NCBI GenBank assembly: GCA_002688315.1
Contig: NZCN01000012.1
Span: forward strand, 57,830 to 121,829
Source: Candidatus Woesearchaeota archaeon
GTDB lineage: Archaea; Nanobdellota; Nanobdellia; Woesearchaeales; UBA10216
DNA: 64,000 bases
Reading direction: 5' to 3'
The stretch's first letter is position 1, and every line of letters starts with the position of its first letter. The notes under the pieces are model-generated. The model saw only the letters and a program-made list of their open reading frames with translations, was not told the origin of the DNA and searched no databases. Position numbers and translations under genes: made by a program. Below are positions 18,126 to 36,427 of the stretch, one piece after another.

Positions 18126-21100
18126 TTATTCAACGATAATGTTCACGTTTTGATGGTCTGATAGTTGTCCATCAAAGACTCTGATGTTTATTGTGTATTC
18201 GCCAGCACGCAATCCTTGTATGCTGAACTTGTTTTCATCCTGAACAAACCAGGAGTTACTGATAGAAAACGTTAACTCATTATCATCACTATTATCTTCG
18301 TTTTCATTATCTGGATCTGTTGCAGCAGCAACAATCGTAACTGGCTCGCCTTCTGTTACAATTATTTCTTCTAAAGGCTCAAGAATAGGCGCTCTATTGG
18401 TGTTTAAGACTTCCACATTAAAGTTGTGTGAAGCGCTTTTACCAAACCTGTCGCTAACATTAATGTAGAATTCATGAGTTCCAGATGAATCATAATCCGG
18501 AGAGTATTCGAAAACATCTTTACTTGATACCCATCCGTCATCCACGTACCAGTTGTAATAAATGGAAGCGTCATCTGGGTGAATGGCATTAATAGTCAAG
18601 TTTCTACTCACGCCTTCTCTGATTGTGAAATTCTGTGGACCGTACAATATTTTGGGCGCTTGGTTAACATTGCCAACTTCTATTTCTACCACCACGTAAT
18701 CTTTCAAACCGTGCTCATCGCTAACGATAAGCTTCATATGGTGTTTACCTCTTGAATTAAAATCAGGAGTGTAAATGTAAGAGCTTTCTAACCCGACAGT
18801 TCGTCCATCCAGCAACCAACGATACCTTGCTTCATCGTCCTCATCAGAATCATTAACTACTGCAGAAAACTCAATGCTTTCACCTTCATCAAGGCTAACT
18901 GGACCTTCAGGAAGTACAGATTCAATTTCCGGAGGTCTGTTAATGTTTCTTATAAGTAAACGACGATTGTAAGTTCGCTCTAATTCTCCATCCGAGACTA
19001 CAACTGTAATGTTATGTTCTCCGTTGGAAAGATAGTCAAAATAATATTCCATTGTTGATTCATCAGAGGTAAGTTCGGTATCAACATACCACTTGTATGT
19101 AATAATATCCTGGTCAAAATCATAAGCATTTACAGAAAAATTTATGGTTTGATCTTCGATTAGAGGCGTTGAGGATGTAGCAAAAATGCCGTTAATTTTT
19201 GGCGCTATGTTCACATTTGAAACAGTAAGTTCCCACTCTTTACTTACAGTATATTCAGAGTCAGAGACTTCAACTTTAATATCATAAGTGCCTGTTGAAC
19301 GGAAATGTGTTTTGTGAAGGTAGGAATCAGAAGATACTCTTCGTTCTCCGTCAACATACCAATTAATTGTTAAGGTTTCATCATCAACGTCAGATGCTGT
19401 TACTGTAAACTGTTGTTTCTGACTTTCTTTGATATTGATATAATCCATATCATTAAGTGACTGAACGCCAAATCCATCTCCGCCTACATCAACTTGTTTT
19501 GGGAAATATTCATCTATGACTGGAGGATCGTTAACTGGTGTAACAGTAACTGAAATTTCATTGTCAGTGCTATCTTCTCCATCATCAGCAGTTAGCGTAA
19601 CTGTTGTTACGCCATTATAATTTTCAGGAGGTATCCAAGAAAGTGTTCCTTCAGAATCTATACTGAAAGATTCGTCGTTTACAGAATAACTTAATGAATC
19701 TCCATCAAGATCGATTGCAATAGTATCATAAACTAATGAAGAGTCTTCTAATATAGATGGGCCTTGAGGCATAACATTCCAGAGAGGAACTCTATTTACA
19801 TTATTAACAACCACTGTAAACTCTTGCGAATCTATGAATTCTCCGTCGCTAACTTCAACCTCAATAAGGTATTCTCCACTATCTTCGTAAGTAGGATTAA
19901 ATTCAAAAGTTGGTCCAATTTCAACTGGTTCATCATTCACACTCCAAGCAACACTAATAGCTTCTCCTTCATCATCACTTACAGATGAGAAGAATGTTTT
20001 GGTTTCTTCTTCATTCATGATTAAACCAGCAGGCTCAACCATAACAGCTGTAATTACAGATGGCCTGTTTACATTAAGTACTAAAACTGTAACTTGTTTT
20101 GAATCTGTTAAATCGCCATCAGATACTTCAATTGAGATTGTATGTTCGCCAGCATCATCAAAACTAGGAGAATATGTAAACGTGCTTGTTGTTGAAGTTT
20201 CAACATCATTAATTTTCCAACTATAACTCAATTCTTCATTATCTAGATCAGAAGCAACAACAGTAAACTCTTGCGAACCGCCTTCATTCATAATCAAACC
20301 AGCAGTATGAGACGTTATAACAGGCGGCCGGTTAACGTTAACTACTGTAATGTTTACTTGCTCATAATCATATACTAAGCCATCAGAAACATTGAATGTA
20401 AAATAGTATGTTCCTGATTGTGCAAATGTAGGAGTCCAGTCAAATGTAGCAGTGCTGTTATCATAGGTTGCTCCTTCTGGCAATCCAGTTGCATTATAAA
20501 ATAGCAAATCTCCTTCGTTATCAGTAGCAGATACTGTGAAACTTAATTGGTTGGTTTCATCAACACTTTTATTTCCAATAAAATCCATGACAGGAGGAGT
20601 GTTGCAAACTCTATTTTCATCAATCAAACCATTACAATTGTCATCTATCTGATTGCAAATTTCAATCACATCTGGATTAATCAAACCATCCTCATCATTG
20701 CAATCTAATCCACCAGTACATCCCAGAGGTAAGTATGTATCTCCGTCAAAATCTGTGCATTGTTCCAACGCAACAGAGTGGCTAAGCCCTGTAATAATGA
20801 ATTGATCATGCTCTTGCAGGTAACAAGACAAAGAATCCTCATCAATTGTTGACAAAAGATTTAACTCACAGTTCAACAAATTTTCATGTTCACCAGTACA
20901 ATCAGAACTAACTTCTGTGATTGAAGAAACTTCAGCGTCTTTTACGCAAACCGCATTTGAACCTGAACTTAATCGGTCAACGTAAACTGATTTTTTACCT
21001 CCTCCTAAATCCAATCCTTTAACTAATGTGAAACCATCTGAATCATCATTTTTTTGTTTGTCTATTGTTAAATTCTTTAAGTAAACTCTTTTTTTGCTGA

Positions 21101-24100
21101 AATTATGACTGAATTCAATAAGGCGTTTATTGCTGTTGTTAATTTTTACTCTTTTCATACCTATTCCATCTAAATCATTTCTAATCTTTATTCTAATATC
21201 CTTATCATCACCTTTAAATTCTATGTCATCATCATTTCCAATAAGATCGTCCTCATCATCATCAACACCATCATTATCCCAATCATCATCTACACAGTCA
21301 GCAACACCATCTCCTTCGTAATCATCAAAGTCTTCGTCAACAGTCCCATCACAGTTATTATCTAAAGCATCACACGTGTTTTCATTGACTTCATATGCAT
21401 TGTTATGGCTAATGTATACTGCTTCTGTGCAACCAAGCCATTCTCCATCTGAAGTGCAAACTTCAACAGAATCAGTACATACACCATCCTGTAATGCACA
21501 TAATTTTGTTTGACCAACTTCACAAGCTAATGTATCAAGAACAATTACAGTAAATTCAAGACTAGTTTCTGCTTCGCCATCACTAACTATTATTGTAAGA
21601 TTGTATGTGCCACTTTCATTGTATTTTGGACTGAAAGCAAATTCTGTTGTTGTTGAAACAATCACGCCATCAAGAAGCCATTTGTATGTCAAAAGATCTC
21701 CATCAGGATCTGAAGCAATAATACTGAAAGTTTTTGTTTCACCTTCGTTCAGTGTTATAGCTATAGCGTCTGTGTCAACTCCTTCTAAACTTACAATTGG
21801 CGGGCTATTTAAAGCTTCATTAACAATAATTTCAACTACTTCAGAGGTGTTTAACCTGCCATCAGATACAGTAGCATTAACAAGATATGTGCCTGCATCT
21901 GTGTTAGTTGTTTGCCATTCAAAGAAGTTAACTATTGAATCGCTGTTAACATTACAAACACCAAAACAATCAATGCAATTTTCAGGAACTACACACATAA
22001 GCCCATCTTCACATTGTTTGCCCATAATTCCTCCACATTCACCCACGCCATCCACTAATCCATCAGAAGTTTTAAATCTAGTATCATTTAAGGTAACAGT
22101 CAAATCATTGTCCCCATCATCAGAAGCTTCAACGCGTATATTGACCATTTCGTTTTCATTAACAACAAAATCGCCTGAAATTTTTAGAATCTCTGGTGCT
22201 TTGTTAAGTATAGTTAGCCATTCAACTGTGTTAAGGATAAGATCTTTGCGAACATCATTATCAGTTACAGCATCAACAGAGAATCCATAATAAACTGTTT
22301 TTTTATCAACAACAGAATTAGTTGTTATTGCAGCAGCTCCGTTTTCCCAATTAGCAACTACATCTCCAGTTACTGCTTCAACTTCATCAGGATAAGGAGA
22401 TTTGTCTTTGTCTATTGTTATTGAAGTTATTCCATCAACAATAAAATGCTCGTTTAAAGTAAGCGTTGTAGTTTCTATAAGCATATCCTGACCAAATACA
22501 CTGCCGCTTAATGTTTCAAGCAGAACATCATCTCCAAGATCCATTGCTAAATCGCTTCCTTCTATAAGCAATCTTTGACTGTAGCCAGAAAGCAATGATT
22601 TATCTTCGTTGCTAAGTACATTATCAAAATAATCGCCAGCGCTCCATATCACTAATGGGAAAGTCTCTAAATGATCCAGAGAAGGCGGGCCTTGTTGTGT
22701 TTCGTCCCACGTATCAACGCAATATCCTTCTGTTTTCAAAACATCGATAAATTCGTTCGCACTGCTAGGATTTTCAGTTGAATAAAATTCCGCATCATTA
22801 TCATTTACCACAAGAATCTTTTCTTTACTGCATAAATAAATCTGCTCTTGCAATTCGTTATTGGATTCATTAAATTCTACTATGGCATTATCTGGATCTG
22901 CAACAATTTTTAAATTGTATGTTCCTTTATCTGAAGGTAATTCGAGATTAATCGTCTTCTCTTTTCCTATGCCAAGATCAAAATTTTTCTGAGATGTTTC
23001 TACATCATCAATGTAAACTTTAAACAAAGATGTTACTGTTGTTCCACCCATATTGGAAACATTAACATCTAAAACAATAGCTGCTAAGTTCTCATCATAT
23101 TTGTAAGACATGCCAGAAATCAAAAGATCTGACTCACTTGGGTAAACTATTAAATCATATTCAGCAAGATTATTAAGATAATTATTTTCACTTATAGAAA
23201 AATCATTATTTGCAATTACTTGAACTGTGTGCAGCCCTTTATTCAAAGTAAGCGTTGACAAGTAAGAGTATTCGTTTTCATTAACAAGGTCTGAAACAGC
23301 AGTTACTTCAATTCCATCTACAAGTATTTCAATAGCAGGAGTTGTTTGCAACTGCTCTGTGCTTTCAATGAAAGTAAACATATTGAAAGGCTGATTTTCA
23401 ATAGGAATAGTTAAAGAGTTTTGTTGAGCTTCTGCTTCGCATTCTTCTTCAGTATCAAAAGCACTAGTGTCGCAAGCACTTCCACATTCGTTAAAACTGC
23501 AAACACCGTCTTCTAGTTGCCATTTAGCAACGCACATCATAATACAAAAACCATCCGTGGACACTGTATCTTCAGCAGAATTTTTATATTCAATTTTTGA
23601 AGGTGTTATGTCAACAGAATTTTCTTCCAGCAACCAATTTAAAGAATTTGAAGCCAAAGTGCTTCTTTCTGTTTCTTCTAAAGCGTTAATGCTAAATGGC
23701 AAGAACAATGATTTCTTCTGCTCATCTTCATAAGCTACGATAGCAGAGCCAGTCGTATCCAAACCAGTCCATTCAGCAAGTTCAACACTTCCATTATAAG
23801 CACGAATTGAATCAGGGAATGGGTTTAAAGTTTCGTTGAATAATAATAGATTTTGCAATCCACTTATTAACGGATGACTTCTTGTTATATTTACCTTTAA
23901 CTGTTCTAATTCAGTGGTTGATGTAACACTAAATCCTAAATCAGTTCCTAGTTCAGAATGAAGTACTGTTTGCATTAATTCATTGTTCTGATGCTTAAAT
24001 GCGACATCACTTCCTTCAACAATCACTTTTCCTTTTTTATCATAATAATCAATTAATGCTGCAGCATCATTTTCGTCAATGTTAGCTAAATCTGTTCCAG

Positions 24101-26567
24101 TTGTCCAAATAACAGCATCGAAATTTTCCAAATAATTGTTTGGAGGAGTTCCACTAACACTTCTGTTAAGTACAGACAAACAAACATTGCTGCTGGTTGC
24201 TTCTTCAAAAACTGATACATCGTCATATGTTTTTGCAACAAGAACATCTTTCCCACTACAGTCAAGTGCATCAAATCGGAAGAAATCACTAGTTACACAA
24301 TTATCGTATTCGTCGCAAGCATTAAACTTCGTTTCAAATTTATCTCCAAACTGGAAAAAATCATCATATATGGTGATTGCAAAGTCTGTTTCAACACCGA
24401 GTTCAGAAAAGGTTTCTACAGTGTAATTAACGTCTATGGTTGTAGGAGATATGGCAATACAAAGATCTGCTCCTGATGCTGGACAAGGAGCAACATATGT
24501 TTGTGTATCCAAACTTATTTTAAGTAATTCTCCAGACTCTTTAAGTTTAACAAAAAAGACTTGTGGATTTTTCTTCATAATTTGCTGAGTGTACTTAACC
24601 TCCACAATCTCAGGAGCCAAATCATCAATAACAGTAATGTTGGTCTCATTAATTAAACTTCCAACACCGTAATCTGTTAAAATCCTAATAGTGTAATTGC
24701 CTGGAAGAACTTCCAGCTCACTATCTACATTTATTGTTGAAGTTGAATCTGCAGCAACATTAACAGAGGGCAGTCTTATTTCTTGGGCAAATTCTTCTGA
24801 GTTGTTTTTAATCAATTGCAAAATTATCGAGATATCAAGGGGAGTGGTTGCTGTGTTTCTGAAATTCAAACTTCCAACAAGGTTATTGCTAAGTGACTGT
24901 TGCTCATTTATATTTATAGCTTCAACGTTTCCAAAATCTCCAGCAGGAAGAACAACTCTAAAATCATTTGAGTAAAATGCAGTCTTTTCTAAAGGAGCAT
25001 CAGAGCCATCAGAACTTTGAAGTGAAGGTTGATAAGTTATATCAATATCAAAAGAATAAGATCCAAGAGCTGATGTATCCGAATAAACATATGAATAATG
25101 ATTCGTATCCACTTTATTTAATGTAAAGCTCACTTGACTATTGTCAGGTTTTGTTATTTTTCCAACAACTTTAACTATTGGGATGTTGTCAAATATTTGA
25201 ACTTCTAAAGTTTGCGTATCATCTTTGTTTATCTGACTTGCCGAGTTCACTGTAAATTCAATGTTTGAATAAAAATTCAAAGCACCACTAAGATCAAGCA
25301 TACCAGCGCCATAACTTGTATCCTTTCCTGAAGAACCCAAATCAACACTTGTGCTTTCAAGAACATGTTTTACATCTGCAGGAGTAAGTTCAGGTTTTCT
25401 TTGAAGAAGCAAAGCAACTGCTCCTGAAACATGCGGAGCTGCCATTGAAGTTCCACTTTTAGATATGTAATTAGAATTTGGAATAGAACTAATTATATCA
25501 ACTCCAGGCGCGGTAATATCTGGCTTGATTCCAACATCATCAATGCTGCCACCGCTTGAAAAACAAGCCACTTGCTTATTTTTGTCAACAGCCCCTACAC
25601 TTATAGCGTCTGGAGAACTTCCAGGGCTGGTAATGCCTCTATAAGAACCGCATTTACCGGAAGGGCAACCGTTACCACAATTACCGCTTGAAACAACCAC
25701 AACAACGCCGTTATCAACTGCACCTTTTATGGCATCGTTCAAAGCTACGTCAATAAGCTTGTTAACGCCTAAGCTCATACTAATGATATCGGCACCATCA
25801 TCTGTTCCAGGATTATTATCAGGATCAATAGCCCAATCAATAGCAGAAATTATCCATGAAGTGCTTCCGAAACCAGTGCTATCTGCTATTACTTTTGCAT
25901 TAAGCAATTTCACTTCTGGAGCAACACCTGAATAAGAACCACCGTTCGCAGTAGTTCCGGCTATTATACCAGCAACATGAGTTCCATGACTGCTTATGTC
26001 ATTAGCACTACCTGAACTTGAGAAATCTCTTTCAGCAACAACTTTTCCAGAAAGCATTGGATGATTTTTATCAATACCAGAATCAATAACAGCAACTTTT
26101 ACTCCATTTCCTTTGTAACCAGCATCCCAAAAAGTGTTTGCATTAATTAACGGAACACTATCAACAAGCAAAGGATAATACTCATAATTAGGATAAATTT
26201 TAACAATTTCTTCTTCATCTGCAAGATTAGATATTTTATCAACAGATATTTCAACTTCAACAAATTTCAGTTCAGCAATTTCAGCAGTGTTTTTTATCTT
26301 TCCTTTTGATTTTTTAATTTCAGACTCAACATCAACAGTAGACCTTACAAGAACAGTAATTTTTTCCTTCTTTTCAACAACACTCTCGATAATTTGCTTC
26401 TTAACTTCAGGAGACACTTTTTCATCATAAGCAACAGCATTATAAGCATCCAAAGAAACGCTAGGTTTATCACTCTCGCCAATTGGAAGGAAAGAAACAG
26501 CTAACAACAGAGACAGAGTTATGAGTAAGGCGATGGATGCACGTTCTGTAATTTTCCATTTATTCAT
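18126..26567 (-). CDS. giant secreted subtilisin-like (S8) protease fused to about 2300 aa of adhesin-type domains (2813 aa)
   Basis: Signal peptide and I9-like propeptide. Catalytic triad motifs VAVIDSGID, HGTHVAGII and GTSMAAPHVSG. CARDB-like segments, Cys-rich and Asp-rich calcium-binding-type motifs (DNNCDGTVDEDFDD...). At least 10 C-terminal Ig/PKD/cadherin-like repeats of about 95 aa. Confidence 0.9.
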   Translation of the reverse strand: MNKWKITERASIALLITLSLLLAVSFLPIGESDKPSVSLDAYNAVAYDEKVSPEVKKQIIESVVEKKEKITVLVRSTVDVESEIKKSKGKIKNTAEIAELKFVEVEISVDKISNLADEEEIVKIYPNYEYYPLLVDSVPLINANTFWDAGYKGNGVKVAVIDSGIDKNHPMLSGKVVAERDFSSSGSANDISSHGTHVAGIIAGTTANGGSYSGVAPEVKLLNAKVIADSTGFGSTSWIISAIDWAIDPDNNPGTDDGADIISMSLGVNKLIDVALNDAIKGAVDNGVVVVVSSGNCGNGCPSGKCGSYRGITSPGSSPDAISVGAVDKNKQVACFSSGGSIDDVGIKPDITAPGVDIISSIPNSNYISKSGTSMAAPHVSGAVALLLQRKPELTPADVKHVLESTSVDLGSSGKDTSYGAGMLDLSGALNFYSNIEFTVNSASQINKDDTQTLEVQIFDNIPIVKVVGKITKPDNSQVSFTLNKVDTNHYSYVYSDTSALGSYSFDIDITYQPSLQSSDGSDAPLEKTAFYSNDFRVVLPAGDFGNVEAININEQQSLSNNLVGSLNFRNTATTPLDISIILQLIKNNSEEFAQEIRLPSVNVAADSTSTINVDSELEVLPGNYTIRILTDYGVGSLINETNITVIDDLAPEIVEVKYTQQIMKKNPQVFFVKLKESGELLKISLDTQTYVAPCPASGADLCIAISPTTIDVNYTVETFSELGVETDFAITIYDDFFQFGDKFETKFNACDEYDNCVTSDFFRFDALDCSGKDVLVAKTYDDVSVFEEATSSNVCLSVLNRSVSGTPPNNYLENFDAVIWTTGTDLANIDENDAAALIDYYDKKGKVIVEGSDVAFKHQNNELMQTVLHSELGTDLGFSVTSTTELEQLKVNITRSHPLISGLQNLLLFNETLNPFPDSIRAYNGSVELAEWTGLDTTGSAIVAYEDEQKKSLFLPFSINALEETERSTLASNSLNWLLEENSVDITPSKIEYKNSAEDTVSTDGFCIMMCVAKWQLEDGVCSFNECGSACDTSAFDTEEECEAEAQQNSLTIPIENQPFNMFTFIESTEQLQTTPAIEILVDGIEVTAVSDLVNENEYSYLSTLTLNKGLHTVQVIANNDFSISENNYLNNLAEYDLIVYPSESDLLISGMSYKYDENLAAIVLDVNVSNMGGTTVTSLFKVYIDDVETSQKNFDLGIGKEKTINLELPSDKGTYNLKIVADPDNAIVEFNESNNELQEQIYLCSKEKILVVNDNDAEFYSTENPSSANEFIDVLKTEGYCVDTWDETQQGPPSLDHLETFPLVIWSAGDYFDNVLSNEDKSLLSGYSQRLLIEGSDLAMDLGDDVLLETLSGSVFGQDMLIETTTLTLNEHFIVDGITSITIDKDKSPYPDEVEAVTGDVVANWENGAAAITTNSVVDKKTVYYGFSVDAVTDNDVRKDLILNTVEWLTILNKAPEILKISGDFVVNENEMVNIRVEASDDGDNDLTVTLNDTRFKTSDGLVDGVGECGGIMGKQCEDGLMCVVPENCIDCFGVCNVNSDSIVNFFEWQTTNTDAGTYLVNATVSDGRLNTSEVVEIIVNEALNSPPIVSLEGVDTDAIAITLNEGETKTFSIIASDPDGDLLTYKWLLDGVIVSTTTEFAFSPKYNESGTYNLTIIVSDGEAETSLEFTVIVLDTLACEVGQTKLCALQDGVCTDSVEVCTSDGEWLGCTEAVYISHNNAYEVNENTCDALDNNCDGTVDEDFDDYEGDGVADCVDDDWDNDGVDDDEDDLIGNDDDIEFKGDDKDIRIKIRNDLDGIGMKRVKINNSNKRLIEFSHNFSKKRVYLKNLTIDKQKNDDSDGFTLVKGLDLGGGKKSVYVDRLSSGSNAVCVKDAEVSSITEVSSDCTGEHENLLNCELNLLSTIDEDSLSCYLQEHDQFIITGLSHSVALEQCTDFDGDTYLPLGCTGGLDCNDEDGLINPDVIEICNQIDDNCNGLIDENRVCNTPPVMDFIGNKSVDETNQLSFTVSATDNEGDLLFYNATGLPEGATYDNSTATFDWTPTFAQSGTYYFTFNVSDGLVYDYEQVNITVVNVNRPPVITSHTAGLIMNEGGSQEFTVVASDLDNEELSYSWKINDVETSTTSTFTYSPSFDDAGEHTISIEVSDGDLTDSKQVTVLVLNVNRPSVITAVMVEPAGLIMNEEETKTFFSSVSDDEGEAISVAWSVNDEPVEIGPTFEFNPTYEDSGEYLIEVEVSDGEFIDSQEFTVVVNNVNRVPLWNVMPQGPSILEDSSLVYDTIAIDLDGDSLSYSVNDESFSIDSEGTLSWIPPENYNGVTTVTLTADDGEDSTDNEISVTVTPVNDPPVIDEYFPKQVDVGGDGFGVQSLNDMDYINIKESQKQQFTVTASDVDDETLTINWYVDGERRVSSDSYLHKTHFRSTGTYDIKVEVSDSEYTVSKEWELTVSNVNIAPKINGIFATSSTPLIEDQTINFSVNAYDFDQDIITYKWYVDTELTSDESTMEYYFDYLSNGEHNITVVVSDGELERTYNRRLLIRNINRPPEIESVLPEGPVSLDEGESIEFSAVVNDSDEDDEARYRWLLDGRTVGLESSYIYTPDFNSRGKHHMKLIVSDEHGLKDYVVVEIEVGNVNQAPKILYGPQNFTIREGVSRNLTINAIHPDDASIYYNWYVDDGWVSSKDVFEYSPDYDSSGTHEFYINVSDRFGKSASHNFNVEVLNTNRAPILEPLEEIIVTEGEPVTIVAAATDPDNENEDNSDDNELTFSISNSWFVQDENKFSIQGLRAGEYTINIRVFDGQLSDHQNVNIIVE

Positions 26568-26586: not shown

Positions 26587-27336
26587 TCAGTTTACTCCTG
26601 ATTCTTCCGCATATTTTTCTGCCAGTCCTTCTTCAAGTTCCAAACCGCGCTTTCTAATTTCTTTACGAACAAAATAGCGTGGGTAAACTGCTTGCCAACT
26701 CTTTTTAAAAACACCTATACCGCCATCATCGCTTTCAACCATTTGTTCAGAATGTTTCTTTAATATGGCGACTAACTCACTTCTGCTCATCACTTTCTCA
26801 ATTTCAGCTAATTTGGCAACTATGTCGGTTCTATGAAAAAAATCATGTGAGAATTGCGCAGGGTTAAAGTCACCACTACCAAAAAGAGGAGGTTCAATGC
26901 AAAACAGGTAGGGGTTTTTATAATACTCTGCTTGGTCAGTGCACGGTCGTGTATTTTCTCTATCTGTATTTTGTTCTGTTGGTTCAGCAGTGCCAAAAAC
27001 AGGTTTAAGTTCTTTACAAGATGCGAAAAAAATGTCGTAAAACAATTTCTGGTTAGGACTTTCAGGATCATCATCCATTACATCTGTAGAAAATACCAAC
27101 CAAGAAGTTTTTCTTGCCTCATCAGAGCCTACACTTAAAATAAAAGGCATATAGCCATACTCTTTAACTCCATAAAAATATGATTTAATGAATACTTCAG
27201 CACCATATTTTGTAGCTTTTCCTATATCAACTTTATCTCCTAGCATCTTTCTAAGAACATTCAAAAAACCATCTAGTTTTCCCGAATAATCCTCTTCAAA
27301 AAACAACATAAAGTCTGTTTCATAACTCATTTTCAT
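26587..27336 (-). CDS. hypothetical cytoplasmic protein (249 aa), candidate immunity/partner of the upstream C-terminal module
   Basis: No signal peptide or TM. The ATG shares nt 27336 with the stop of the 1333-aa gene (TAATG). Confidence 0.7.
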   Translation of the reverse strand: MKMSYETDFMLFFEEDYSGKLDGFLNVLRKMLGDKVDIGKATKYGAEVFIKSYFYGVKEYGYMPFILSVGSDEARKTSWLVFSTDVMDDDPESPNQKLFYDIFFASCKELKPVFGTAEPTEQNTDRENTRPCTDQAEYYKNPYLFCIEPPLFGSGDFNPAQFSHDFFHRTDIVAKLAEIEKVMSRSELVAILKKHSEQMVESDDGGIGVFKKSWQAVYPRYFVRKEIRKRGLELEEGLAEKYAEESGVN

Positions 27337-30300
27337 TATCCTCCAGTTTCCGCTTCGATTTTTATTCGACGTGCTGCAATATCAAATGCTTCATTAGTAG
27401 CTTTAAGCTCTGCAGTCTCTGCTTTAAAACCTGCATTACGAACTTTTTTCAAAAGATTGGGAAGTTGCTTTGACGCTGCAGCTTCTCCTTTTGGAATCAT
27501 AAGAATAAATTCTGGAGTTTGACCTGTAACCTCTTTAACTGCTTCTAAACGGTTAATTACCTTTTCAGTAACTCCGTTTTTCCAACCTAGAGGCTTCCAG
27601 CTCCATTTTCGTGGAATTTGCATATCCAAATTTCCAGCAGACATAGTTTTTACTTCTGTAACAATCCATTTATCGTTTATCTTATAGAAATCATCGAAAT
27701 CTCCTAGTAATCTGTTGCCTGCTTTTTCCCACACATCTAGGTTTCCTTTATCATTGAAAACCAGTTTATATTTGCTAGTTTCTTTGAAAACTGTTCCTGA
27801 GTTCCCTGCAGGTCTTACAAAAACAGCTCCTTCTTTAACTAATTCTTCTCCAACCATATCTGCTTGTTTCATAGATACTTTTTCTCCAAGCGCTCCTTTT
27901 ACATTGCCAATATGTTTAGTGTTAATGCCTGGCAAATCTGAAGGAGTTGTTGCTCGTAATAAATCATCTACAACTGTAGTTATTTTATTTGAAACACCTG
28001 CATTGTTCATTATTTTAACAATCATTCCAACAACGTTATCGTAAACCTTTAAACTTCCGCTAATTACTTTATATCCAATTGTATTTACACCATCACTAAC
28101 TTTTATGAAAGTATCACTTTCTTTTATTACTTTGATACCATAACCTAAAAATTTTTCAACATAAGGAATTGAATAAACTGTGCCTTTTAATACTACAAAC
28201 ACTTTTCCAAGTGCTTTGGCTATCCATATGGCAGGTATAAATGAAACACCTAAGAATGTAGCATCCAATTTACATTTTTCCCAGGTATTTTTCGCAAGTG
28301 TAGAAGATTTTTTTATGCAATTTCCGATATGGTCTTTATTAATTGCATTTCCAATAGTTAAGCCTGCTGGATTACAGCTAATACCGTACCAAATATTTTT
28401 CCCTACACCAGCCCACCAACTATCCGTCTCTTCAACACATTTAGCATAATCTCCATAAGCCCAACCTACGAAGCCTACCCAAACTATTGCAACAACTACG
28501 AGAGGAATTGCTTCAGGAGCATAAGTTTCGTCATAAGATGTAACTGTTATGGTATTTGAATCAACACCATTAATGTTTTGGCTTAAACTTTGCTGTTGAG
28601 ATTGCAAGTCAACATTTATATAGTGTTCTTCAAATTGTTCATCAACAAAAATATCTACGGAATAACGATGATCGTAAGGTTCTCCCCCATCTTCATCAGC
28701 TATTTTCATACCAATGCCTAATTGGTGAGACCCATAGTTAACATTAGAAATGTAAAAATTACCTGTTGTATCTGTAAGTCCTATCTTTTCTTGGTCAAGA
28801 AAAATATATGCGTTATAAATCGGATATCCTTCATCTGTTGCAGAATGTAGAGCTCTTACTTTTAACTGTAATTCACTTTCCTGAACTGAACAGCTACAAC
28901 CAAAACTAACATATTCTGTTCCATCAACATGCACTGTTCTTTCATTGCAGTAAGTTTTATCAGGGCATTCTACTTTTACGTTTCGACTTCCATAATTTGC
29001 GTCAAAACCTTTTTTACCATTACTGTCAGTTGTACTTTTTGATACGCTATCCAAATAAACATGTGCGCCACTCATTGCATTGTTATTATTGCTGTAGAAA
29101 ACATCAACATTTATCTTGCCTTCTGGAGCGATACAGTCTTGCGAACAACTATTATAATTCTCATTGCTTGAACATATTCCATCGCCACAATGTTCAGGCT
29201 CTGATGAAAGACAACCATCATAACCAGAATCATGCCCAGCATAATTTTGTTCACAATAAGGGTGTGATGAAGGACAGTCTGAATTTGTATCACAATCACA
29301 TTGAGAAGATGAACCGTCAGGAACATCACAATTTACCTGTTGAAAAGGTCCGTCACGACAAGTTTGATCGCTCGCCCAGTAGTAAGGATAGTCAGAAGGG
29401 CAACAGTTAAGAGTGTTTCCAGTGCAAGTTCCTACAGCACTACTATCTATGCAAACCCATTTTTTATCTTGGCAGCTATATATCGGTCTTCCATCACAAT
29501 AGTTTGTATTTTGGAAACAAATGTTTCCAGCTGGACAAGCATAAGGATATTCCGAATTACAACAAAACGCAGAGTTATCAGCACCACAAGAAGGTTCACC
29601 ATAAGTGCAAGATGTTTGTTTATCATAACAGTTATCGCCGCATTCTAAAGAGTCTTGAGGGCATGCATGGCAAGAACCATCGTATTTGTAAGGCTTATCT
29701 GAAGGGCAAGAAGATGATACTGTAAGCGGTTCTTCCTCTATGTTATTATTTTCATTAGTTTCAATAATATCGTCATTTAAATCAACTTCGTTCTTAACAG
29801 TATAAGTGCCTTGATTAAGATTTATGTTGTTTCTTATGCAACTTACAGCCTCTAAGAAGTCAATATCATCGATAGTGCATTCTCCGTAATAGGAGTTATC
29901 AATACGAAGTTCCATTACAAAACTATCAGTAACATCTTCAGGCCCAAGGTTTACAACAGTAAACCAGATTGTTATTGAATCGCTTTCTTTAGGACTGCTT
30001 GGATCAATTACGAAGCTTGAAGGTGCTAAATCAACAGGAGTCTGAGTTACTGAAAGACTTTCAGTATCTTCATTATTGCCTTCATCAGCTTCACCGATTT
30101 GATTGCCAGTATCAACTACAGTCTTAAGAGTATATGTGCCTGGAGCAAGTGTTACACCAGAACGTTCACAAAAAGTTGCTTCCAGAAAATCCAATCCGTT
30201 AGGATAATTACAATCTCCATATTGAACATCATCAATGTAAAATTTAATACGAAACTGGTCATTTATATCATCAGGGCCTGTATTAATAGCTTTATACCAA

Positions 30301-31337
30301 AAAGTAATAGAATCTTTATCAGAAGGGCTACTAGGACTAACATCTATATTGCCAGGAACAAGATCATAACTTGCTACATGAGATACAGTCAAACTTTGAG
30401 TTTTAATATTATTGTTCTCATTTGTTTCACCAACATTGTTTGATGGATCAACAATTATTTTGAGCGTATGCATACCTTCGCTCAAAGTTATACCTGTTCT
30501 AGTGCAACTACTGTACCATCCTGCAGTTAACCCATTATTTGCATTACATGTTTGATAGTGCACGTCATCAATGTAAAGCTTATAATTAAAGTAACCTGTT
30601 ATGTCGCTTGATCCATCGTTCTTAATCTCATACAAAATAGAGATAGAATCTTGGTCATTAGGACTGCTAGGCGTTACAATAAAACCCCAAGGAATAAGAT
30701 CATATTGATTGCTTGCAGCAAATGAACCTTTGATATAATAAGCTGAACTTGCACTGTAAGCACCTGAATAACCATAAACTCTTGCATAAACCCACCCTGA
30801 ATTCACGCTAACAACGCATTGCTCATCAGTTCCAGTTCCATCGTACGGCGAACAAATTTTATTACCGCAACTACTGTAAACCTCAAGCTCATAGTCTTTA
30901 TTTGAAGGAACATCTAAATCAACAGTAAAAGTTCCAGAAGAAGGCAAATCCCATTTGCGCCAGTCATCATCTCCATTATAATCAACATACCCAAGATACC
31001 ATGTGTTTAGATTCTTGACATACGCTTCTGGACACGTATTATCATAAGCTTGCGGAATTACGTCTTCTACGTTTTCAACTTCTACGTCTTCAGTATCTAC
31101 ATTGTCAACGTTAACAGACTTAGTGGAGACATCAGAATCCAATATAGTGACTTTTCCGTCTTCAGAAACCTGAATCTGGACTTCATTAACAACATCTGAT
31201 TTTTTTATTTCTTCTCCATACTTTTCAGTTGATGGAGAAAAAACATCAGAAAGCTGTTGTGCATAGCTCAATGGAGTCAACAGCAGAATGAGGCTTACAA
31301 ATATGACGTAACTTTTGTTAAACCAGTGAGCTATCAT
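27336..31337 (-). CDS. large surface protein (1333 aa) ending in a non-repetitive C-terminal module
   Basis: Domain order read by eye: signal peptide; PPC-like domain; four roughly 115-aa CARDB-like repeats; Cys-rich region; two CarboxypepD_reg-like domains. These are followed by hydrophobic segments at nt 28455-28515 and 28190-28262. The C-terminal module contains GDFDD...VTEVK. ATGA overlap with the upstream gene. Confidence 0.85.
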   Translation of the reverse strand: MIAHWFNKSYVIFVSLILLLTPLSYAQQLSDVFSPSTEKYGEEIKKSDVVNEVQIQVSEDGKVTILDSDVSTKSVNVDNVDTEDVEVENVEDVIPQAYDNTCPEAYVKNLNTWYLGYVDYNGDDDWRKWDLPSSGTFTVDLDVPSNKDYELEVYSSCGNKICSPYDGTGTDEQCVVSVNSGWVYARVYGYSGAYSASSAYYIKGSFAASNQYDLIPWGFIVTPSSPNDQDSISILYEIKNDGSSDITGYFNYKLYIDDVHYQTCNANNGLTAGWYSSCTRTGITLSEGMHTLKIIVDPSNNVGETNENNNIKTQSLTVSHVASYDLVPGNIDVSPSSPSDKDSITFWYKAINTGPDDINDQFRIKFYIDDVQYGDCNYPNGLDFLEATFCERSGVTLAPGTYTLKTVVDTGNQIGEADEGNNEDTESLSVTQTPVDLAPSSFVIDPSSPKESDSITIWFTVVNLGPEDVTDSFVMELRIDNSYYGECTIDDIDFLEAVSCIRNNINLNQGTYTVKNEVDLNDDIIETNENNNIEEEPLTVSSSCPSDKPYKYDGSCHACPQDSLECGDNCYDKQTSCTYGEPSCGADNSAFCCNSEYPYACPAGNICFQNTNYCDGRPIYSCQDKKWVCIDSSAVGTCTGNTLNCCPSDYPYYWASDQTCRDGPFQQVNCDVPDGSSSQCDCDTNSDCPSSHPYCEQNYAGHDSGYDGCLSSEPEHCGDGICSSNENYNSCSQDCIAPEGKINVDVFYSNNNNAMSGAHVYLDSVSKSTTDSNGKKGFDANYGSRNVKVECPDKTYCNERTVHVDGTEYVSFGCSCSVQESELQLKVRALHSATDEGYPIYNAYIFLDQEKIGLTDTTGNFYISNVNYGSHQLGIGMKIADEDGGEPYDHRYSVDIFVDEQFEEHYINVDLQSQQQSLSQNINGVDSNTITVTSYDETYAPEAIPLVVVAIVWVGFVGWAYGDYAKCVEETDSWWAGVGKNIWYGISCNPAGLTIGNAINKDHIGNCIKKSSTLAKNTWEKCKLDATFLGVSFIPAIWIAKALGKVFVVLKGTVYSIPYVEKFLGYGIKVIKESDTFIKVSDGVNTIGYKVISGSLKVYDNVVGMIVKIMNNAGVSNKITTVVDDLLRATTPSDLPGINTKHIGNVKGALGEKVSMKQADMVGEELVKEGAVFVRPAGNSGTVFKETSKYKLVFNDKGNLDVWEKAGNRLLGDFDDFYKINDKWIVTEVKTMSAGNLDMQIPRKWSWKPLGWKNGVTEKVINRLEAVKEVTGQTPEFILMIPKGEAAASKQLPNLLKKVRNAGFKAETAELKATNEAFDIAARRIKIEAETGG

Positions 31338-32050
31338 CGGAATAAATTGAAAAACTTAGTTATGAATGATTCATCACTTTCTTTTTCTTCCGGTTTTTCT
31401 GAACTGATTTTTTCAATAACTTGAACTTCCTCCTCAACTGCCTCTTTTTTATCTCCTGAAAATAATCCAGCTATTTTTTTAAAAAAGCCGTTTTCGGGTT
31501 GAACTTCTTTTTCTTCTTCTAAAGGCGCTTCAATAATAACTTCAACAGAATCATCATTCTCTTCAGTTTCCTCTATCAATTCACTGTTTGGTCCAGAACT
31601 ACTTACTCCTGTTGCCTCTTCTGATGCTTCCTGCGTATCTGAAGCTACAGAATCTGATGAAGGTACATGTACATCATAGCCAGCATCCAACGCTTCCTGC
31701 ACAGTCATTTTTCCAGTTGATTTAGCAGTTGTTTCTTGAACAACTACGTCATTACCGCCAGAAGTAACAATAGAAGTTTGAGTGCTTCTTTTATCAAGCA
31801 AATCAGTAACATTAATATCAAAACCTAATTCTTTTAATTCCTCTTCAGTAAGAGTTCTTCTTTTTTGAATTAAATCATCATTAGATGCTGCTTCATTCGA
31901 CTCTATTTCTATTGGAACCTGTGTTACTGATTCTTTTTCAATAGGTTTGGCAGGAATACTAACCGCTAACCCGTCAGCATAAGCTGAAAAAGACATTGAT
32001 AAAACCAATATCATTAATAACGAAAACAAAATGCTAAATTTTTTACACAT
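31334..32050 (-). CDS. acidic secreted protein (238 aa), first gene of the surface-protein operon
   Basis: GGAGG 6 nt upstream of ATG 32050; signal peptide MCKKFSILFSLLMILVLSMSFSAYA; Glu/Asp/Ser-rich. Confidence 0.7.
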   Translation of the reverse strand: MCKKFSILFSLLMILVLSMSFSAYADGLAVSIPAKPIEKESVTQVPIEIESNEAASNDDLIQKRRTLTEEELKELGFDINVTDLLDKRSTQTSIVTSGGNDVVVQETTAKSTGKMTVQEALDAGYDVHVPSSDSVASDTQEASEEATGVSSSGPNSELIEETEENDDSVEVIIEAPLEEEKEVQPENGFFKKIAGLFSGDKKEAVEEEVQVIEKISSEKPEEKESDESFITKFFNLFR

Positions 32051-32104
32051 TTTTATGCCTCCAAACATTTAAGCTACCAGAAACAACTGTTAATTTAAGA
32101 ATAT

Positions 32105-32799: not shown

Positions 32800-33354
32800 G
32801 TGTTGGGTGGTAATGTGAGTAAAAGTTTCTTCCAGACAGATCTATCTGAAATAGAAAAGATAAAACAAGAATTTGAGGCTGCTCTCAAAGGCATAAAAGA
32901 AGAGTTCGATGAGCATCGTGAAAGCATAAATGACAATACTAATGAAACACAGGCAAATTACGAATATCTTTCTAAGATTGATGAAAAACTTAACAAGCTA
33001 ACAGAACGTCTTGACCAGGTAGAATCATGGGTTTCAAGGCTTACTGGCGTTTCGATAAAAGAAGAAGAGGAAGAAATAAAAATAACACTTAGCGATAAGG
33101 AAAAAAGAGTTTTCCTTATACTTTACACTTCTTCACAGCCTGTAACTTATGAGCAAATAGGGCGAAGTATTAATGAAAACGATTTTTTAGTAAGAGGCTA
33201 CTTAACAAACATGCTGGAAAAAGGCATTCCTATACATAAGCGCTACATTGACAGGCAAGTATACTTATCATTAGACAAAGGATTTAAAGAAAAGCAGGCA
33301 AAACAAAATATTCTCGGAATAAATCAAACAACAGTAAAAGAATTCTTAAGTTAA
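32800..33354 (+). CDS. coiled-coil plus C-terminal winged-helix protein (putative regulator)
   Basis: N-terminal heptad region, then a LSDKEKRVFLILYTSSQPVTYEQIG HTH-like segment. Confidence 0.45.
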   Translation: MLGGNVSKSFFQTDLSEIEKIKQEFEAALKGIKEEFDEHRESINDNTNETQANYEYLSKIDEKLNKLTERLDQVESWVSRLTGVSIKEEEEEIKITLSDKEKRVFLILYTSSQPVTYEQIGRSINENDFLVRGYLTNMLEKGIPIHKRYIDRQVYLSLDKGFKEKQAKQNILGINQTTVKEFLS

Positions 33355-34607
33355 CTTCTTAGCTCAACAGCTTTCGCAACCCTGTCTACTGCCAAAAGGT
33401 ATGCAGATTCTCTCATGCTTAGCTTGTTTTTATTAGAATTTTTAAAAGTGGTTTCAAAAACATTACTCAACATTTGCTTCAGTTTTTCATACGTTTCTGT
33501 ATAACTCCAGTAATAGCCGTAATTGTTTTGAACCCATTCAAAATAGCTTGCAGTGACACCGCCAGAATTTGCAAGAATATCAGGAATTACCATGGCCTTT
33601 TTTTCATTCAAAATACGGTCAGCACCTGCGCTTACAGGCCCATTTGCCATTTCAACAACAAGTTTTGCTTTTACGTTATCAGCGTTTTTCAAAGTAATTT
33701 GATTGCCTAAAGCAGCTGGAATTAAAATATCAACATCAAGCTCTAAAAGTTCCTCATTAGTTATTAGCTTGCCTTTATCACTAACAACAGAACCAACTGA
33801 ATAACAATCAGCTATTGTTCCTTTTTCCAATTTACAAGTCATAGTTTTTTCAGGAGAAAAGCCTGACTTATTGTAAATAGCACCCCTAGAGTCAGACAGC
33901 GCAACAACCTTATAACCTGCATCATGCAAAAGCCTTGCAATATTAAAACCAACATTTCCAAAACCCTGAATTGCTACTGTTGTTGATTTTGGCTTTAATT
34001 TAAGGCGTGAGGTAGCATCATTGCAAACAAAAAAACCTCCTAAGCCTGTTGCTTCTTCACGTATTTGAATACCTCCAAGCTCTACAGGCTTTCCTGTAAA
34101 AGCGCTTGGCGCGTGATGCTTAACTAATAATTCGTACTGGTCAAGCATCCAACTCATTATTTTTGGAGTAGTATACACATCTGGAGCAGGAATATCCTTA
34201 TCAGGACCAATAAATTCGCTAAACGAGTCTACATAGCCTTTGCTCATATCTCTTAACTCATGCAAAGAAGATTTTTTTGGATCTACTATTATCCCTCCTT
34301 TAGCTCCTCCAAAAGGCAAACCAAGCAAAGAGCATTTCCATGTCATCCACATAGCTAAAGCTTTTACCTCTTCAATACTCACTTCAGGATGAAATCTTAT
34401 CCCTCCTTTAAATGGGCCTAGAGCGTCATTGTGCTGAATTCTGTAAGCATTAAAGTATTTTTTATCACCAGCACCCATTCTAACAGGAATATCATCTTTT
34501 AGAACATTTTTCGGCTCAGAAAGAGTCTTAAGCACCTTTCCATCCATATCTAACACTTTTGCAGCAGATGCCAACTGCTTTTTAGCACTGGTTAATTCAC
34601 TCTCCAT
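33351..34607 (-). CDS. gdhA: glutamate dehydrogenase
   Basis: GGAKGG catalytic Lys motif and the GFGNVG Rossmann dinucleotide motif. Confidence 0.95.
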   Translation of the reverse strand: MESELTSAKKQLASAAKVLDMDGKVLKTLSEPKNVLKDDIPVRMGAGDKKYFNAYRIQHNDALGPFKGGIRFHPEVSIEEVKALAMWMTWKCSLLGLPFGGAKGGIIVDPKKSSLHELRDMSKGYVDSFSEFIGPDKDIPAPDVYTTPKIMSWMLDQYELLVKHHAPSAFTGKPVELGGIQIREEATGLGGFFVCNDATSRLKLKPKSTTVAIQGFGNVGFNIARLLHDAGYKVVALSDSRGAIYNKSGFSPEKTMTCKLEKGTIADCYSVGSVVSDKGKLITNEELLELDVDILIPAALGNQITLKNADNVKAKLVVEMANGPVSAGADRILNEKKAMVIPDILANSGGVTASYFEWVQNNYGYYWSYTETYEKLKQMLSNVFETTFKNSNKNKLSMRESAYLLAVDRVAKAVELRS

Positions 34608-35122: not shown

Positions 35123-36427
35123 TTATTCTTTTATAATCCCATAACCAATCAATCGCCATCTTGAGCCAAGAAGTCTTGAGATAGTAACTCTGGATTCTGT
35201 TTCTGCGCAGACAGGAATACGTAAGCTGCATTTAAGCGAATTCTTTTTTAGTTCGTTAACAATGCCAACAGTAGCTGCTGAGTTCACATTAAGCATGAGA
35301 TTTTCATTCATCTTTATAGGCTCAACCACAAGGTCATCTTTAGCTCCAACAACTCGCTCAAGCAAATTAACTTCAAGATTAAGATCATACCAAACAGTTG
35401 GAAGCTTTCCAGGAATTCCTGCAACATTTCCAACAAAAGCATCAGACTTTACAATTCCAGGGTCAAGCATTGTTAAAACACCCACAGAACCGCCAGGGTG
35501 AACTTGAGAAACATCATCATTACCTGCTTTCAAAGCTTTTATCTTAGTCAATAAAGGCTTCCAAACAGTTTTCCCGCGCTTTTGAGAATTATATCCTGGC
35601 TTCAACTCTAATTCATCTCCAACTTTCAAAGTACCTTGTTTTAAAGTTCCGCCTAAAACTCCTCCAACAAGTTTTTGATAATCAATTCCTGGCTTGTTTA
35701 TATCAAAAGATCTTGCTACAAACAGCAAAGGACTAAGTTCTTTATCTCTCTTAGGAGAAGGTATTTTTTCCTGTATTGCCTGAAGCAATGCATCAATGTT
35801 AACTTTATGCTGCGCAGAAATAGGAATTATCGGAGCCGCTGCGTAAGGTGTTCCTTTCAAAAACGCTTTTATTTGCTGATAATTTTTCTTTGCAACAGCA
35901 TTACTAACAAGGTCTATTTTGTTTTGAACAACAACAACATTCTTAATGCCTATGATTTGAAGCGCAACAAGATGCTCTCTTGTTTGCGGTTGAGGACAGT
36001 TTTCATTAGCAGCAATCAACAATAAAGCACCATCAATAATTGCAGTCCCAGACAGCATAGTAGCCATTAAGCTTTCATGCCCTGGAGCGTCAACAATACT
36101 AATCGTTCTTAACAACTCGCCTTTCTTTTTACAACTGCTGCTTTCATTAACTGAATAACACTGAGGAGATTCACAATCAGAACACTTATAGACACTAAAA
36201 TCCGCATAACCAAGCCTTATTGTAATTCCTTTTTTAATCTCTTCAGAATGCGTATCAGTCCATTTTTCAGACAAAGCCTGCACTAAAGTTGTTTTCCCAT
36301 GGTCAACATGGCCTACAATGCCAAGATTAAGCTCTGGCTGAAGAATCTTTTTAGCCTTACCACTGCTTTTATTTTCTTTCTCAACTTTTTTAGCTGCAGC
36401 AGTAGTTTTTTTAGCTATGGCAATCAC
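35123..36427 (-). CDS. eif2g: translation initiation factor aIF2 gamma subunit
   Basis: GHVDHGKTT G1 motif, zinc-ribbon Cys cluster (CSDCESPQC), VQNKID G4 motif; Lys-rich N-terminal extension. Confidence 0.95.
   Translation of the reverse strand: MIAIAKKTTAAAKKVEKENKSSGKAKKILQPELNLGIVGHVDHGKTTLVQALSEKWTDTHSEEIKKGITIRLGYADFSVYKCSDCESPQCYSVNESSSCKKKGELLRTISIVDAPGHESLMATMLSGTAIIDGALLLIAANENCPQPQTREHLVALQIIGIKNVVVVQNKIDLVSNAVAKKNYQQIKAFLKGTPYAAAPIIPISAQHKVNIDALLQAIQEKIPSPKRDKELSPLLFVARSFDINKPGIDYQKLVGGVLGGTLKQGTLKVGDELELKPGYNSQKRGKTVWKPLLTKIKALKAGNDDVSQVHPGGSVGVLTMLDPGIVKSDAFVGNVAGIPGKLPTVWYDLNLEVNLLERVVGAKDDLVVEPIKMNENLMLNVNSAATVGIVNELKKNSLKCSLRIPVCAETESRVTISRLLGSRWRLIGYGIIKE

Follow-up and report, generated by a model that had tools for sequence, protein, structure and literature searches.

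The 64,000-nucleotide window analysed here, positions 57,830 to 121,829 of contig NZCN01000012.1 from a Candidatus Woesearchaeota archaeon, carries four closely packed minus-strand genes that encode proteins of 244, 1333, 249, and 2813 amino acids (aa). The 1333-aa gene product is a predicted surface protein ending in a nuclease-like module, hereafter the tip, and the 249-aa gene directly downstream encodes a candidate immunity protein. We interpret tip and partner as a probable polymorphic-toxin-like nuclease/immunity cassette within a conserved Woesearchaeota surface operon, a reading in which we place fair but not high confidence. The operon features are collected in Table 1; relatives are cited by protein (P) and locus (L) numbers.

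The genes are tightly coupled. The stop codon of the 244-aa gene overlaps the start of the 1333-aa gene in an ATGA. The 1333-aa stop and the 249-aa start overlap in a TAATG (GGAGGATAATGAAAATG), with nucleotide (nt) 27336 common to both and a GGAGG just 5'. An earlier interpretation made from the letters of the window (the sequence-only reading) had placed both open reading frames (ORFs) and their TAATG coupling correctly. It had also called the body of the larger protein modular, in agreement with the three CARDB domains and the CarboxypepD_reg-like domains found by Pfam, and had seen no transmembrane helix in the 249-aa protein, which indeed lacks a hydrophobic segment (maximum Kyte-Doolittle 19-residue mean, KD19, of 0.64). 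Public gene callers begin the 249-aa ORF at Met3 (247 aa, P0003). Scans for sigma-70 promoters and for terminators gave counts equal to those of shuffled sequences; the sigma-70 consensus is bacterial and the host archaeal.

Table 1. Features of the surface operon and of the 1333-aa protein. Coordinates are window positions.
Feature	Coordinates	Strand	Description
244-aa gene	31334..32068	-	Signal peptide or anchor, acidic low-complexity middle, C-terminal FFxxLFR tail
1333-aa surface protein gene	27336..31337	-	Signal peptide, variable ectodomain, conserved stalk, hydrophobic anchor, C-terminal nuclease-like module
Ectodomain outside the C-terminal cassette, aa 28-830	28848..31256	-	PPC-like region, three CARDB, Cys-rich region, first CarboxypepD_reg-like stalk domain
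Motif VDGTEYVSFGCSC, aa 804-816	28890..28928	-	VDGTEYVxFxCxC; visible in all large homologues
Exchangeable C-terminal module, aa ~831-1333	27339..28847	-	Last stalk domain, TM1, 4-Cys segment, Lys-rich amphipathic segment, tip
First hydrophobic segment (TM1), aa 943-962	28452..28511	-	Strongly hydrophobic; kept in all members except the subfamily without a transmembrane helix
Juxtamembrane segment, aa 963-1025	28263..28451	-	Four invariant Cys
Second hydrophobic segment, aa 1026-1050	28188..28262	-	Marginal; followed by a Lys-rich stretch
Tip, N-terminal part, aa 1051-1140	27918..28187	-	Four-strand beta mini-domain and two helices (predicted model)
Tip, PD-(D/E)xK-like core, aa 1141-1333	27339..27917	-	Predicted model, Foldseek, profiles, conservation
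249-aa gene, candidate immunity protein	26587..27336	-	Acidic (isoelectric point 4.9), predicted cytoplasmic
2813-aa secreted S8 subtilase gene	18126..26567	-	Begins 19 nt 3' of the 249-aa gene; Pfam

The 1333-aa protein starts with a hydrophobic leader (aa 1-27, Kyte-Doolittle value 1.7, based on hydropathy and not on a formal signal-peptide predictor). Its ectodomain includes 27 Cys within aa 546-735, compared with 0 in the tip. This distribution fits a tip that works in a cytoplasm, either its own or that of a target. The 2813-aa subtilase combines PKD, Big_9, He_PIG, CARDB, cadherin-like, and MopE-like repeats, and its sole hydrophobic stretch is the N-terminal leader. No transporter gene was found in the window operon from the ORF list and Pfam.

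The tip comprises 283 aa (aa 1051-1333). Its AlphaFold2 (AF2) model, based on a 22-sequence alignment, has a predicted local distance difference test score (pLDDT) of 91.9 and a predicted template modelling score (pTM) of 0.88. Comparison of element order shows that the modelled core runs alpha-beta-beta-beta-alpha-beta, the order of PD-(D/E)xK enzymes. In model numbering, the elements are a helix at residues 93-118, a beta meander, strands at 159-170 and 173-179, a helix at 206-221, and a strand at 226-233, and a further helix and strand belong to the same modelled core.

The sequence-only reading had already proposed a PD-(D/E)xK core from a helix, the LLGDFDD and WIVTEVK motifs, and the residues D1213, E1228, and K1230. 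The positions given for all of these are correct (KGALGEKVSMKQADMVGEELV, aa 1147-1167; LLGDFDD, aa 1210-1216; WIVTEVK, aa 1224-1230), and the motif order is borne out by the AF2 model and by conservation of E1228 (nt 27654-27656, 21 of 23 sequences) and K1230 (nt 27648-27650, 22 of 23), both on the second of two strands. The choice of D1213 as key Asp did not hold. This residue (nt 27699-27701) varies across the family (D in 8 sequences, E in 10, Q in 4, and R in 1) and was ruled out as the catalytic Asp; conserved instead is D1215 on the first strand (nt 27693-27695, 21/23), which fits a G-x-x-D consensus. A further conserved acidic residue, E1152 (17 of 19; nt 27882-27884), lies in the long helix within a G-x-L-G-E-K motif, and a PE...PKGE motif is found at nt 27483-27515, with E1276 and K1283 near-invariant. 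The four putative catalytic residues are retained in 89-96% of sequences that are just 25-35% identical overall. Distant relatives read GEIDGL-x-F-(V/I)-N-G-K-P-(V/I)-(V/I)-(I/F)-E-(A/V)-K, a textbook PD-(D/E)xK form. Catalytic positions are substituted in three copies, with K to S in P0015, D to A plus E to S in P0016, and D to S plus E to N in P0035. Roughly half of the tips have a C-terminal GG, GGG, or GGGG (ETGG, KGGG, LRGG, PGGGG, ISGGG, QSGGG); in the window these codons lie at nt 27339-27344 (-).

Similarity searches point in the same direction, with matches to PD-(D/E)xK proteins that are present but weak throughout. Foldseek against the PDB returned Can2 as the best tip match (E = 7e-3, probability 0.98, TMq 0.25), in a list that also includes SduA/Shedu, EcoT38I, BstEII, MUS81, PspGI, and Avs4. 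Weak BFVD matches likewise include PD-(D/E)xK nucleases and exonucleases. Sub-threshold Pfam matches were to HSDR_N in 2 of 22 tip family members (E = 2.4e-3) and NERD in 1 of 22, and the PADLOC model CARF_PDDEXK matched two relatives below threshold (E = 0.012 and 0.034) over the D...ExK region. Although sub-threshold, these matches agree with one another in pointing to PD-(D/E)xK nucleases. PDB matches to chitin deacetylase, VraR, and ubiquitin were at chance level and were disregarded. Nothing rose above threshold when tip and partner were compared with Pfam, NCBIfam, PDB sequences, PHROGs, and PADLOC, and the last 319 residues of the 1333-aa protein and the 249-aa protein have no Pfam or NCBIfam match. 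We conclude that the PD-(D/E)xK fold of the tip is well supported by the predicted model, and that the tip may be an active nuclease.

The AF2 model of the 249-aa protein (pLDDT 83.4, pTM 0.85) consists of two alpha+beta parts. Its top and only whole-length Foldseek match in the PDB is 7DRG, PA0821 of Pseudomonas aeruginosa, with chain B ranked first (E = 7.7e-4, TMq 0.40, probability 0.99) and chain A fifth (E = 2.2e-3, TMq 0.39), over 307-317 columns. PA0821 is TsiV, a DUF3396 immunity protein that neutralizes TseV (PA0822), a PD-(D/E)xK/VRR-Nuc effector of a type VI secretion system (T6SS), and in the TseV3/TsiV3 pair an exposed beta-sheet of TsiV3 blocks the DNA-binding face of TseV3 (PMC9635880, PMC10281587). 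The modelled resemblance to DUF3396/TsiV is a lead and not an assignment of membership. The window tip and partner have isoelectric points of 9.3 and 4.9; charge complementarity as a general property of the pairs was rejected, as it is not conserved across the family.

Both families are small. An HMMER search that covered all of 1.84 billion cluster representatives yielded 28 tip representatives, from which P0027 (1597 aa, 14 repeated stretches) was dropped as a false match of a repeat protein. The module occurs in 12 large surface proteins (700-1429 aa), forming the C-terminal end in 10 and being followed by more domains in P0020 and P0026. A word-indexed protein search found one tip relative (P0002, 55% identical), followed on its contig by a homologue of the 249-aa ORF. 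The partner family is equally small, with 13 proteins by profile search with an extended partner alignment; this search returned no distant or bacterial relatives. Pattern scans of Joint Genome Institute (JGI) metagenome contigs and IMG/VR with the tip and partner alignments found no relatives. Genome records of the relatives are Candidatus Woesearchaeota metagenome-assembled genomes (MAGs) from groundwater.

The two families are consistently linked. Each of the 11 loci compared (the window, L001, L002, and L007-L014) has a 249-family gene 3' of the tip, and start/stop overlaps recur as TAATG, as an ATGA read in L001, and as a 4-nt coordinate overlap in L012. Furthermore, the identity between two tips correlates with that between their partners (r = 0.78, 45 pairs). 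Chance does not account for the features, as each gene is a member of a conserved family and the two families are linked at every locus examined. One 249-family gene is solitary (L006:2453-3217, 51% identical), with no tip gene on its 5.7-kb contig; it sits among small unrelated genes, close to genes for Rpb4 and L21e. In L016 (2-1144) the contig begins inside a 249-family gene, which is followed by small secreted proteins and by ORFs that resemble fragments of S8 proteases by eye. The MAG is labelled 'uncultured Desulfurococcales archaeon', suggesting either a wider distribution or a binning error.

The rest of the operon is also conserved. In other loci the gene order is small secreted protein, big protein, 249-family gene, and giant S8 subtilase. 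In L002, L008, L013, and L014, the big gene is preceded by a counterpart of the 244-aa gene that has a matching C-terminal motif. The products of these upstream small genes (L002:716-1465, L008:9232-9891, L013:2857-3582, L014:884-1843) always combine a leader peptide with a low-complexity region, either acidic or rich in Pro/Ser, and with a conserved amphipathic C-terminal tail (FFxxLFR and similar). A giant S8 protease gene lies 3' of the toxin and partner genes in the window and in the six loci where the downstream gene is identifiable (L002, L007, L008, L009, and L011 by Pfam, and L014 by 47% identity to the window protease). The 2813-aa protease is a candidate processing or releasing enzyme.

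Comparison of the large homologues indicates that the C-terminal part is exchanged as a unit. All large members have the C-terminal module, whose identity is 20-35% in cases with an ectodomain identity of 50-65%. Between the window protein and P0030, identity is 48-65% across most of aa 118-832 (in two 60-aa windows, at aa 475-593, it drops to 31% and 10%, the latter window being nearly all gaps) and 20-35% from there to the C-terminus; individual ectodomain segments of this pair are 46-61% identical. The reverse is seen in P0012, in which the distal body is unrelated to that of the window protein, and the stalk, transmembrane region, and tip are 61-69% identical. By segment comparison, aa 1-545 of the window protein have no match in P0012, and aa 553-830 are 36-61% identical (36% in the Cys-rich region and 61% in the stalk). 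The distal ectodomain (~aa 28-545) is missing or unrelated in relatives with a common tip, and both body types pair with both tip clades.

In sliding identity plots, P0012 and P0020 break at the same point as the window protein and P0030. Similarity in the mosaic pairs collapses just after VDGTEYVxFxCxC (window aa 804-816), which is a candidate recombination junction. Based on this common breakpoint, we infer that the exchangeable unit is aa ~831-1333 together with the partner gene.

Locus L014 carries traces of such a replacement. Its big gene (P0030), with a tip of the distant clade, is followed by a divergent 228-aa partner, a 78-codon remnant, an intact 241-aa partner, and the S8 protease. 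The remnant (6401-6637) is 62% identical to the last 76 residues of the window tip and 26% identical to P0030's own tip, and the intact partner (6642-7367) is 49% identical to the window partner. Polymorphic toxin loci classically leave such a footprint, in which the end of a displaced toxin persists beside its intact cognate immunity gene. Another cluster, L013:6861-10140, contains tandem 249-family paralogues (267 and 254 aa) and then a 363-aa ORF of no recognised family, translationally coupled to a 205-aa stand-alone copy of the core (P0015) in which K1230 is replaced by Ser. The window itself contains no orphan tip fragments or partner genes. The earlier suggestion that the locus follows the grammar of polymorphic toxin/immunity systems agrees with the linkage in 11 of 11 loci, the exchange of the tip and the downstream ORF as a unit in the mosaic pairs, the L014 remnant with its cognate partner, and the PA0821-like partner model.

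Two relatives carry extra domains, which are appended after the tip and do not replace it. P0026 (L007:3627-5852) adds a Scabin-like ADP-ribosyltransferase (ART) domain with FRGR, ISTS, and ESE motifs recognised by eye and a sub-threshold Pfam match (E = 3e-4). Directly 3' is a 258-aa ORF (L007:5855-6631) that has no homologues in the other loci. The P0026 big gene looks split by a frameshift (691 aa and 741 aa). P0020 (L008:10001-13903) adds a ~265-aa domain with a HELAH (HExxH) motif and weak DUF6782/SprT-like matches, followed directly by a 220-aa ORF (L008:13961-14623). Each add-on locus has one extra unrelated ORF between the big gene and the 249-family gene, and the ART domain and 258-aa ORF of P0026 are a candidate second toxin/immunity pair, as judged from motifs and gene order. 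In L008, a TEN_YD-shell (RHS-type) gene (21578-23903) lies 3' of the S8 protease.

The membrane topology bears directly on where the tip would act. TM1 has a KD19 of 1.8-2.6 across 12 homologues, compared with 1.55-1.77 for the second segment in the window clade and 0.8-1.4 in distant relatives. Estimated insertion energies are favourable for TM1 and +2.7 to +8.1 for the second segment, although these use approximate Hessa-type parameters and the Kyte-Doolittle values are the firmer basis. Of the two hydrophobic segments proposed from the sequence-only reading, the first is therefore upheld, and the second is marginal. A conserved two-helix hairpin anchor was ruled out as a family feature, as the hydrophobicity of the second segment does not extend to distant relatives. 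For the membrane-anchored members, the hydrophobicity pattern and the Lys-rich segment speak for a single membrane pass, with the N-terminus outside and the C-terminus inside (N-out/C-in). The four juxtamembrane Cys have a wide, non-CxxC spacing, are invariant in all homologues that bear a transmembrane helix, and are accompanied by W-W and NQN motifs.

Two relatives depart from this arrangement. P0038 and a second L011 protein (1481 aa) have a signal peptide and the tip but no transmembrane helix, and the counterpart of TM1 is Gly-rich and weakly hydrophobic. As a signal peptide is present and a transmembrane helix absent, these two proteins would export the tip. P0038 keeps both the partner gene and the protease. 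Members of this subfamily (L009:86-3673, which is P0038, and L011:14217-18662) bear TSP3/dockerin-like Asp-rich motifs and are without the 4-Cys segment, and the L009 protease carries a dockerin domain.

We propose a divergent PD-(D/E)xK nuclease for the tip, its putative active site being formed by E1152 (helix 1), D1215 (strand 2), and E1228-x-K1230 (strand 3). The 249-aa protein would be its cognate inhibitor, protecting the producer and kin cells, and by analogy with the action of TsiV on TseV it would probably act on the DNA-binding face. The large, fast-changing ectodomain may contact the target cell, the hydrophobic Gly-rich and Lys-rich amphipathic segments could anchor the tip in the producer membrane and perhaps aid its crossing of the target membrane, and the co-operonic giant S8 protease could process or release the 1333-aa protein. 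Nuclease activity, toxicity, partner-mediated inhibition, protease function, and every step of delivery are all to be understood in this conditional sense. We speculate that the system is an archaeal counterpart of contact-dependent inhibition (CDI) without a dedicated secretion machine, in which the hydrophobic, Gly-rich, and amphipathic segment would first hold the toxin in the producer membrane and then, after subtilase cleavage or through DPANN membrane contact or fusion, take the nuclease into the neighbouring cell; this extension is possible but doubtful.

Several observations weigh against a toxin/immunity cassette. An N-out/C-in topology would put the tip in the producer cytoplasm, from which there is no known export route. 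The tips are one diversifying fold in deeply divergent clades and not a panel of unrelated toxins, and the cassette resides in a conserved, housekeeping-flanked operon and not on a mobile island. No known nuclease matches the tip at conventional significance, and the Foldseek TM-scores are about 0.25. For the partner, ACT, BamC-N, and KA1 folds reach similar E-values on one sub-domain, the TM-score to PA0821 is below 0.5, and neither the window protein nor 10 family members have a DUF3396 Pfam match up to E = 10. The linkage also has irregularities, as the second L011 tip protein (1481 aa) precedes a 55-aa ORF and not a 249-family gene, and partners from its tip's clade are not the nearest relatives of L14_228. 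Finally, every relative was drawn from a MAG or a metagenome contig.

The sequence-only reading had named as its alternative a surface receptor with a cytoplasmic nuclease-like domain. The hydrophobicity data favour such a single-pass transmembrane sensor, in which the ectodomain would sense a virus, partner cell, or ligand, the cytoplasmic PD-(D/E)xK nuclease would be the output in abortive defence or self-limitation, and the 249-aa protein would be a cytoplasmic inhibitor or regulator released on signalling or on cleavage of the ectodomain by the S8 protease. TM1 is strong and conserved, the second segment is mostly not a transmembrane helix and is followed by a Lys-rich stretch in keeping with the positive-inside rule, the partner is predicted to be cytoplasmic, and the Cys-free tip contrasts with the Cys-rich ectodomain. 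The defence nucleases Can2, Shedu SduA, and Avs4 are among the structural matches to the tip, and swapping of effectors (nuclease, ART, protease) is typical of defence systems too. We nevertheless regard a sensor as unlikely. No PADLOC model matches the window proteins, and signalling across a membrane is not possible for P0038 or the 1481-aa protein of L011, which have a signal peptide but lack a transmembrane helix. The intact partner beside a truncated remnant in L014 and the solitary partner in L006 are the behaviour of an immunity gene and not expected of a regulator, and the extra ORF that accompanies each add-on toxin domain fits toxin/immunity better.

The nuclease fold and the tightly coupled acidic partner (isoelectric points of 9.3 and 4.9 in the window pair) would also suit a surface nuclease with which a nucleotide-auxotrophic DPANN cell scavenges nutrients, the 249-aa protein being a safety inhibitor before export, like barstar for barnase or NuiA for NucA. 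A conserved, housekeeping-flanked operon next to a giant secreted protease and the confinement of the family to small-genome Woesearchaeota agree with such a role. Cassette displacement, orphan remnants, tandem partner paralogues, and orphan partners are unexpected for a metabolic enzyme, however, the Scabin-like ART add-on is of a toxin type and not digestive, and the charge complementarity is not conserved across the family, making scavenging quite improbable. We give still less credence to a non-enzymatic pair, in which the tip would be an inactive PD-(D/E)xK-like domain with a structural or DNA-binding role and its structural partner in a conserved surface complex would be the 249-aa protein. 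The sub-threshold level of all similarity to known nucleases and the loss of catalytic residues in P0015, P0016, and P0035 speak for it. Against it stands the retention of the four putative catalytic residues (89-96% of sequences) at 25-35% identity, and the copies that have degenerated are those that stand alone or are orphaned, a pattern that suits decaying toxin modules. We thus retain the nuclease/immunity cassette as the favoured interpretation.

Just past the protease gene, the window encodes a type I signal peptidase (S26/S24; 15790-16440, +) and a 401-aa protein with a CarboxypepD_reg-like domain (16915-18120, +). Housekeeping neighbours include glutamate dehydrogenase (33351-34607) and ribosomal protein S6e (36491-37084), and a GTPase ORF (35123-36427) resembles aIF2-gamma by eye.

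Polymorphic toxin/immunity systems are of major importance in bacterial competition and kin recognition. To our knowledge, archaeal polymorphic toxins are known mainly from predictions in a few lineages, and we found no report of polymorphic toxins in Woesearchaeota in the literature searched. The locus would add a new Pfam-less family of nuclease-like toxins and a new family of candidate immunity proteins from a DPANN host, together with direct traces, in DPANN genomes, of cassettes having been replaced. What is unusual in the architecture is the position of the toxin behind a membrane helix in a conserved four-gene surface operon with a 2813-aa subtilase. This raises the testable question of how a single-membrane cell for which no injection apparatus is known could deliver a toxin that acts in the cytoplasm, and the locus offers a handle on the dealings of ultra-small episymbiotic archaea with their hosts and with one another. 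If the self-translocating reading were true, the system would be a kin- or host-discrimination weapon of episymbiotic archaea, the first polymorphic toxin with a translocation device inside the swapped cassette in a single-membrane organism, and a new class of immunity fold, TsiV-like in shape, would be represented by the 249-aa family. If the protein were instead a sensor, it would be of a type not yet described among archaeal transmembrane proteins for defence or signalling. Polymorphic toxins have been regarded as rare in archaea (PMC3482391).

Among known systems, TseV/TsiV (PA0822/PA0821 and TseV3/TsiV3 of S. bongori) is similar in that a PD-(D/E)xK-type nuclease gene directly precedes a gene for a cytoplasmic alpha+beta protein. 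Tandem immunity duplicates occur both there (PMC9635880) and in L013. Unlike TseV/TsiV, the window pair has no sequence relation to VRR-Nuc or DUF3396 and no PAAR, VgrG, or T6SS context; its carrier is a Sec-type giant archaeal surface protein with a hydrophobic anchor before the toxin.

Sec-dependent Tox-REase systems of the WapA/Rhs type, which carry restriction endonuclease (REase)-fold toxins, share the signal peptide, the modular stalk, the C-terminal nuclease, and an immunity gene directly 3'. Sec-dependent polymorphic toxins further resemble the window system and its relatives in replacements that leave orphan remnants, in extra toxin domains with extra immunity-like ORFs, in a subtilisin-type protease, and in the RHS gene nearby in L008. 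Subtilisins have been listed as processing proteases of Sec-dependent polymorphic toxins, and toxins that combine a transmembrane domain with an REase domain are known (PMC3482391). The window protein differs in having no RHS, filamentous haemagglutinin (FHA), or known pre-toxin domain, in a tip and partner that match no Tox or Imm Pfam family, in a single tip fold, and in the strongly hydrophobic segment that precedes the toxin. REase toxins fused to PrsW (PMC3482391) likewise have a membrane-embedded region before the toxin and a proposed proteolytic release. PrsW is an eight-helix N-terminal intramembrane protease, whereas the window protein has one helix after a huge ectodomain and a separate secreted S8 protease.

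As in CdiA-CT/CdiI, where CT denotes the C-terminal toxin region, an exchangeable 'entry' part and a nuclease follow a junction motif (VENN there, VDGTEYVxFxCxC here), and orphan CT/immunity modules lie 3'. In contrast to CDI systems, the Pfam domains of the 1333-aa protein are CARDB and CarboxypepD_reg-like, and there is no TpsA domain, FHA repeat, VENN, CdiB, or outer membrane. The arrangement of modules also differs, with the main pair, the remnant, and the old immunity gene in L014 and a stand-alone tip copy after the partner genes in L013. The resemblance to CDI is an analogy only.

Shedu (SduA) and Can2/Card1 are the nearest Foldseek and PADLOC neighbours of the tip core and similarly place a PD-(D/E)xK effector on a variable sensing region. 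The window proteins are without DUF4263, CARF, or a significant profile match, and those systems are without a dedicated immunity gene or orphan cassettes. The VARTIG system of Thermococcales (PMC8416519) is an archaeal parallel, with a large recombining surface protein followed by variable small genes, and has been likened to polymorphic toxins. Its variable part is a C-terminal Ig domain without a toxin/immunity pair (PMC8416519), whereas the window system exchanges an enzyme-like domain together with its partner. By sequence a member of no Tox, Imm, DUF3396, CDI, or PADLOC family, the window system would work like Sec-dependent polymorphic toxins and TseV/TsiV.

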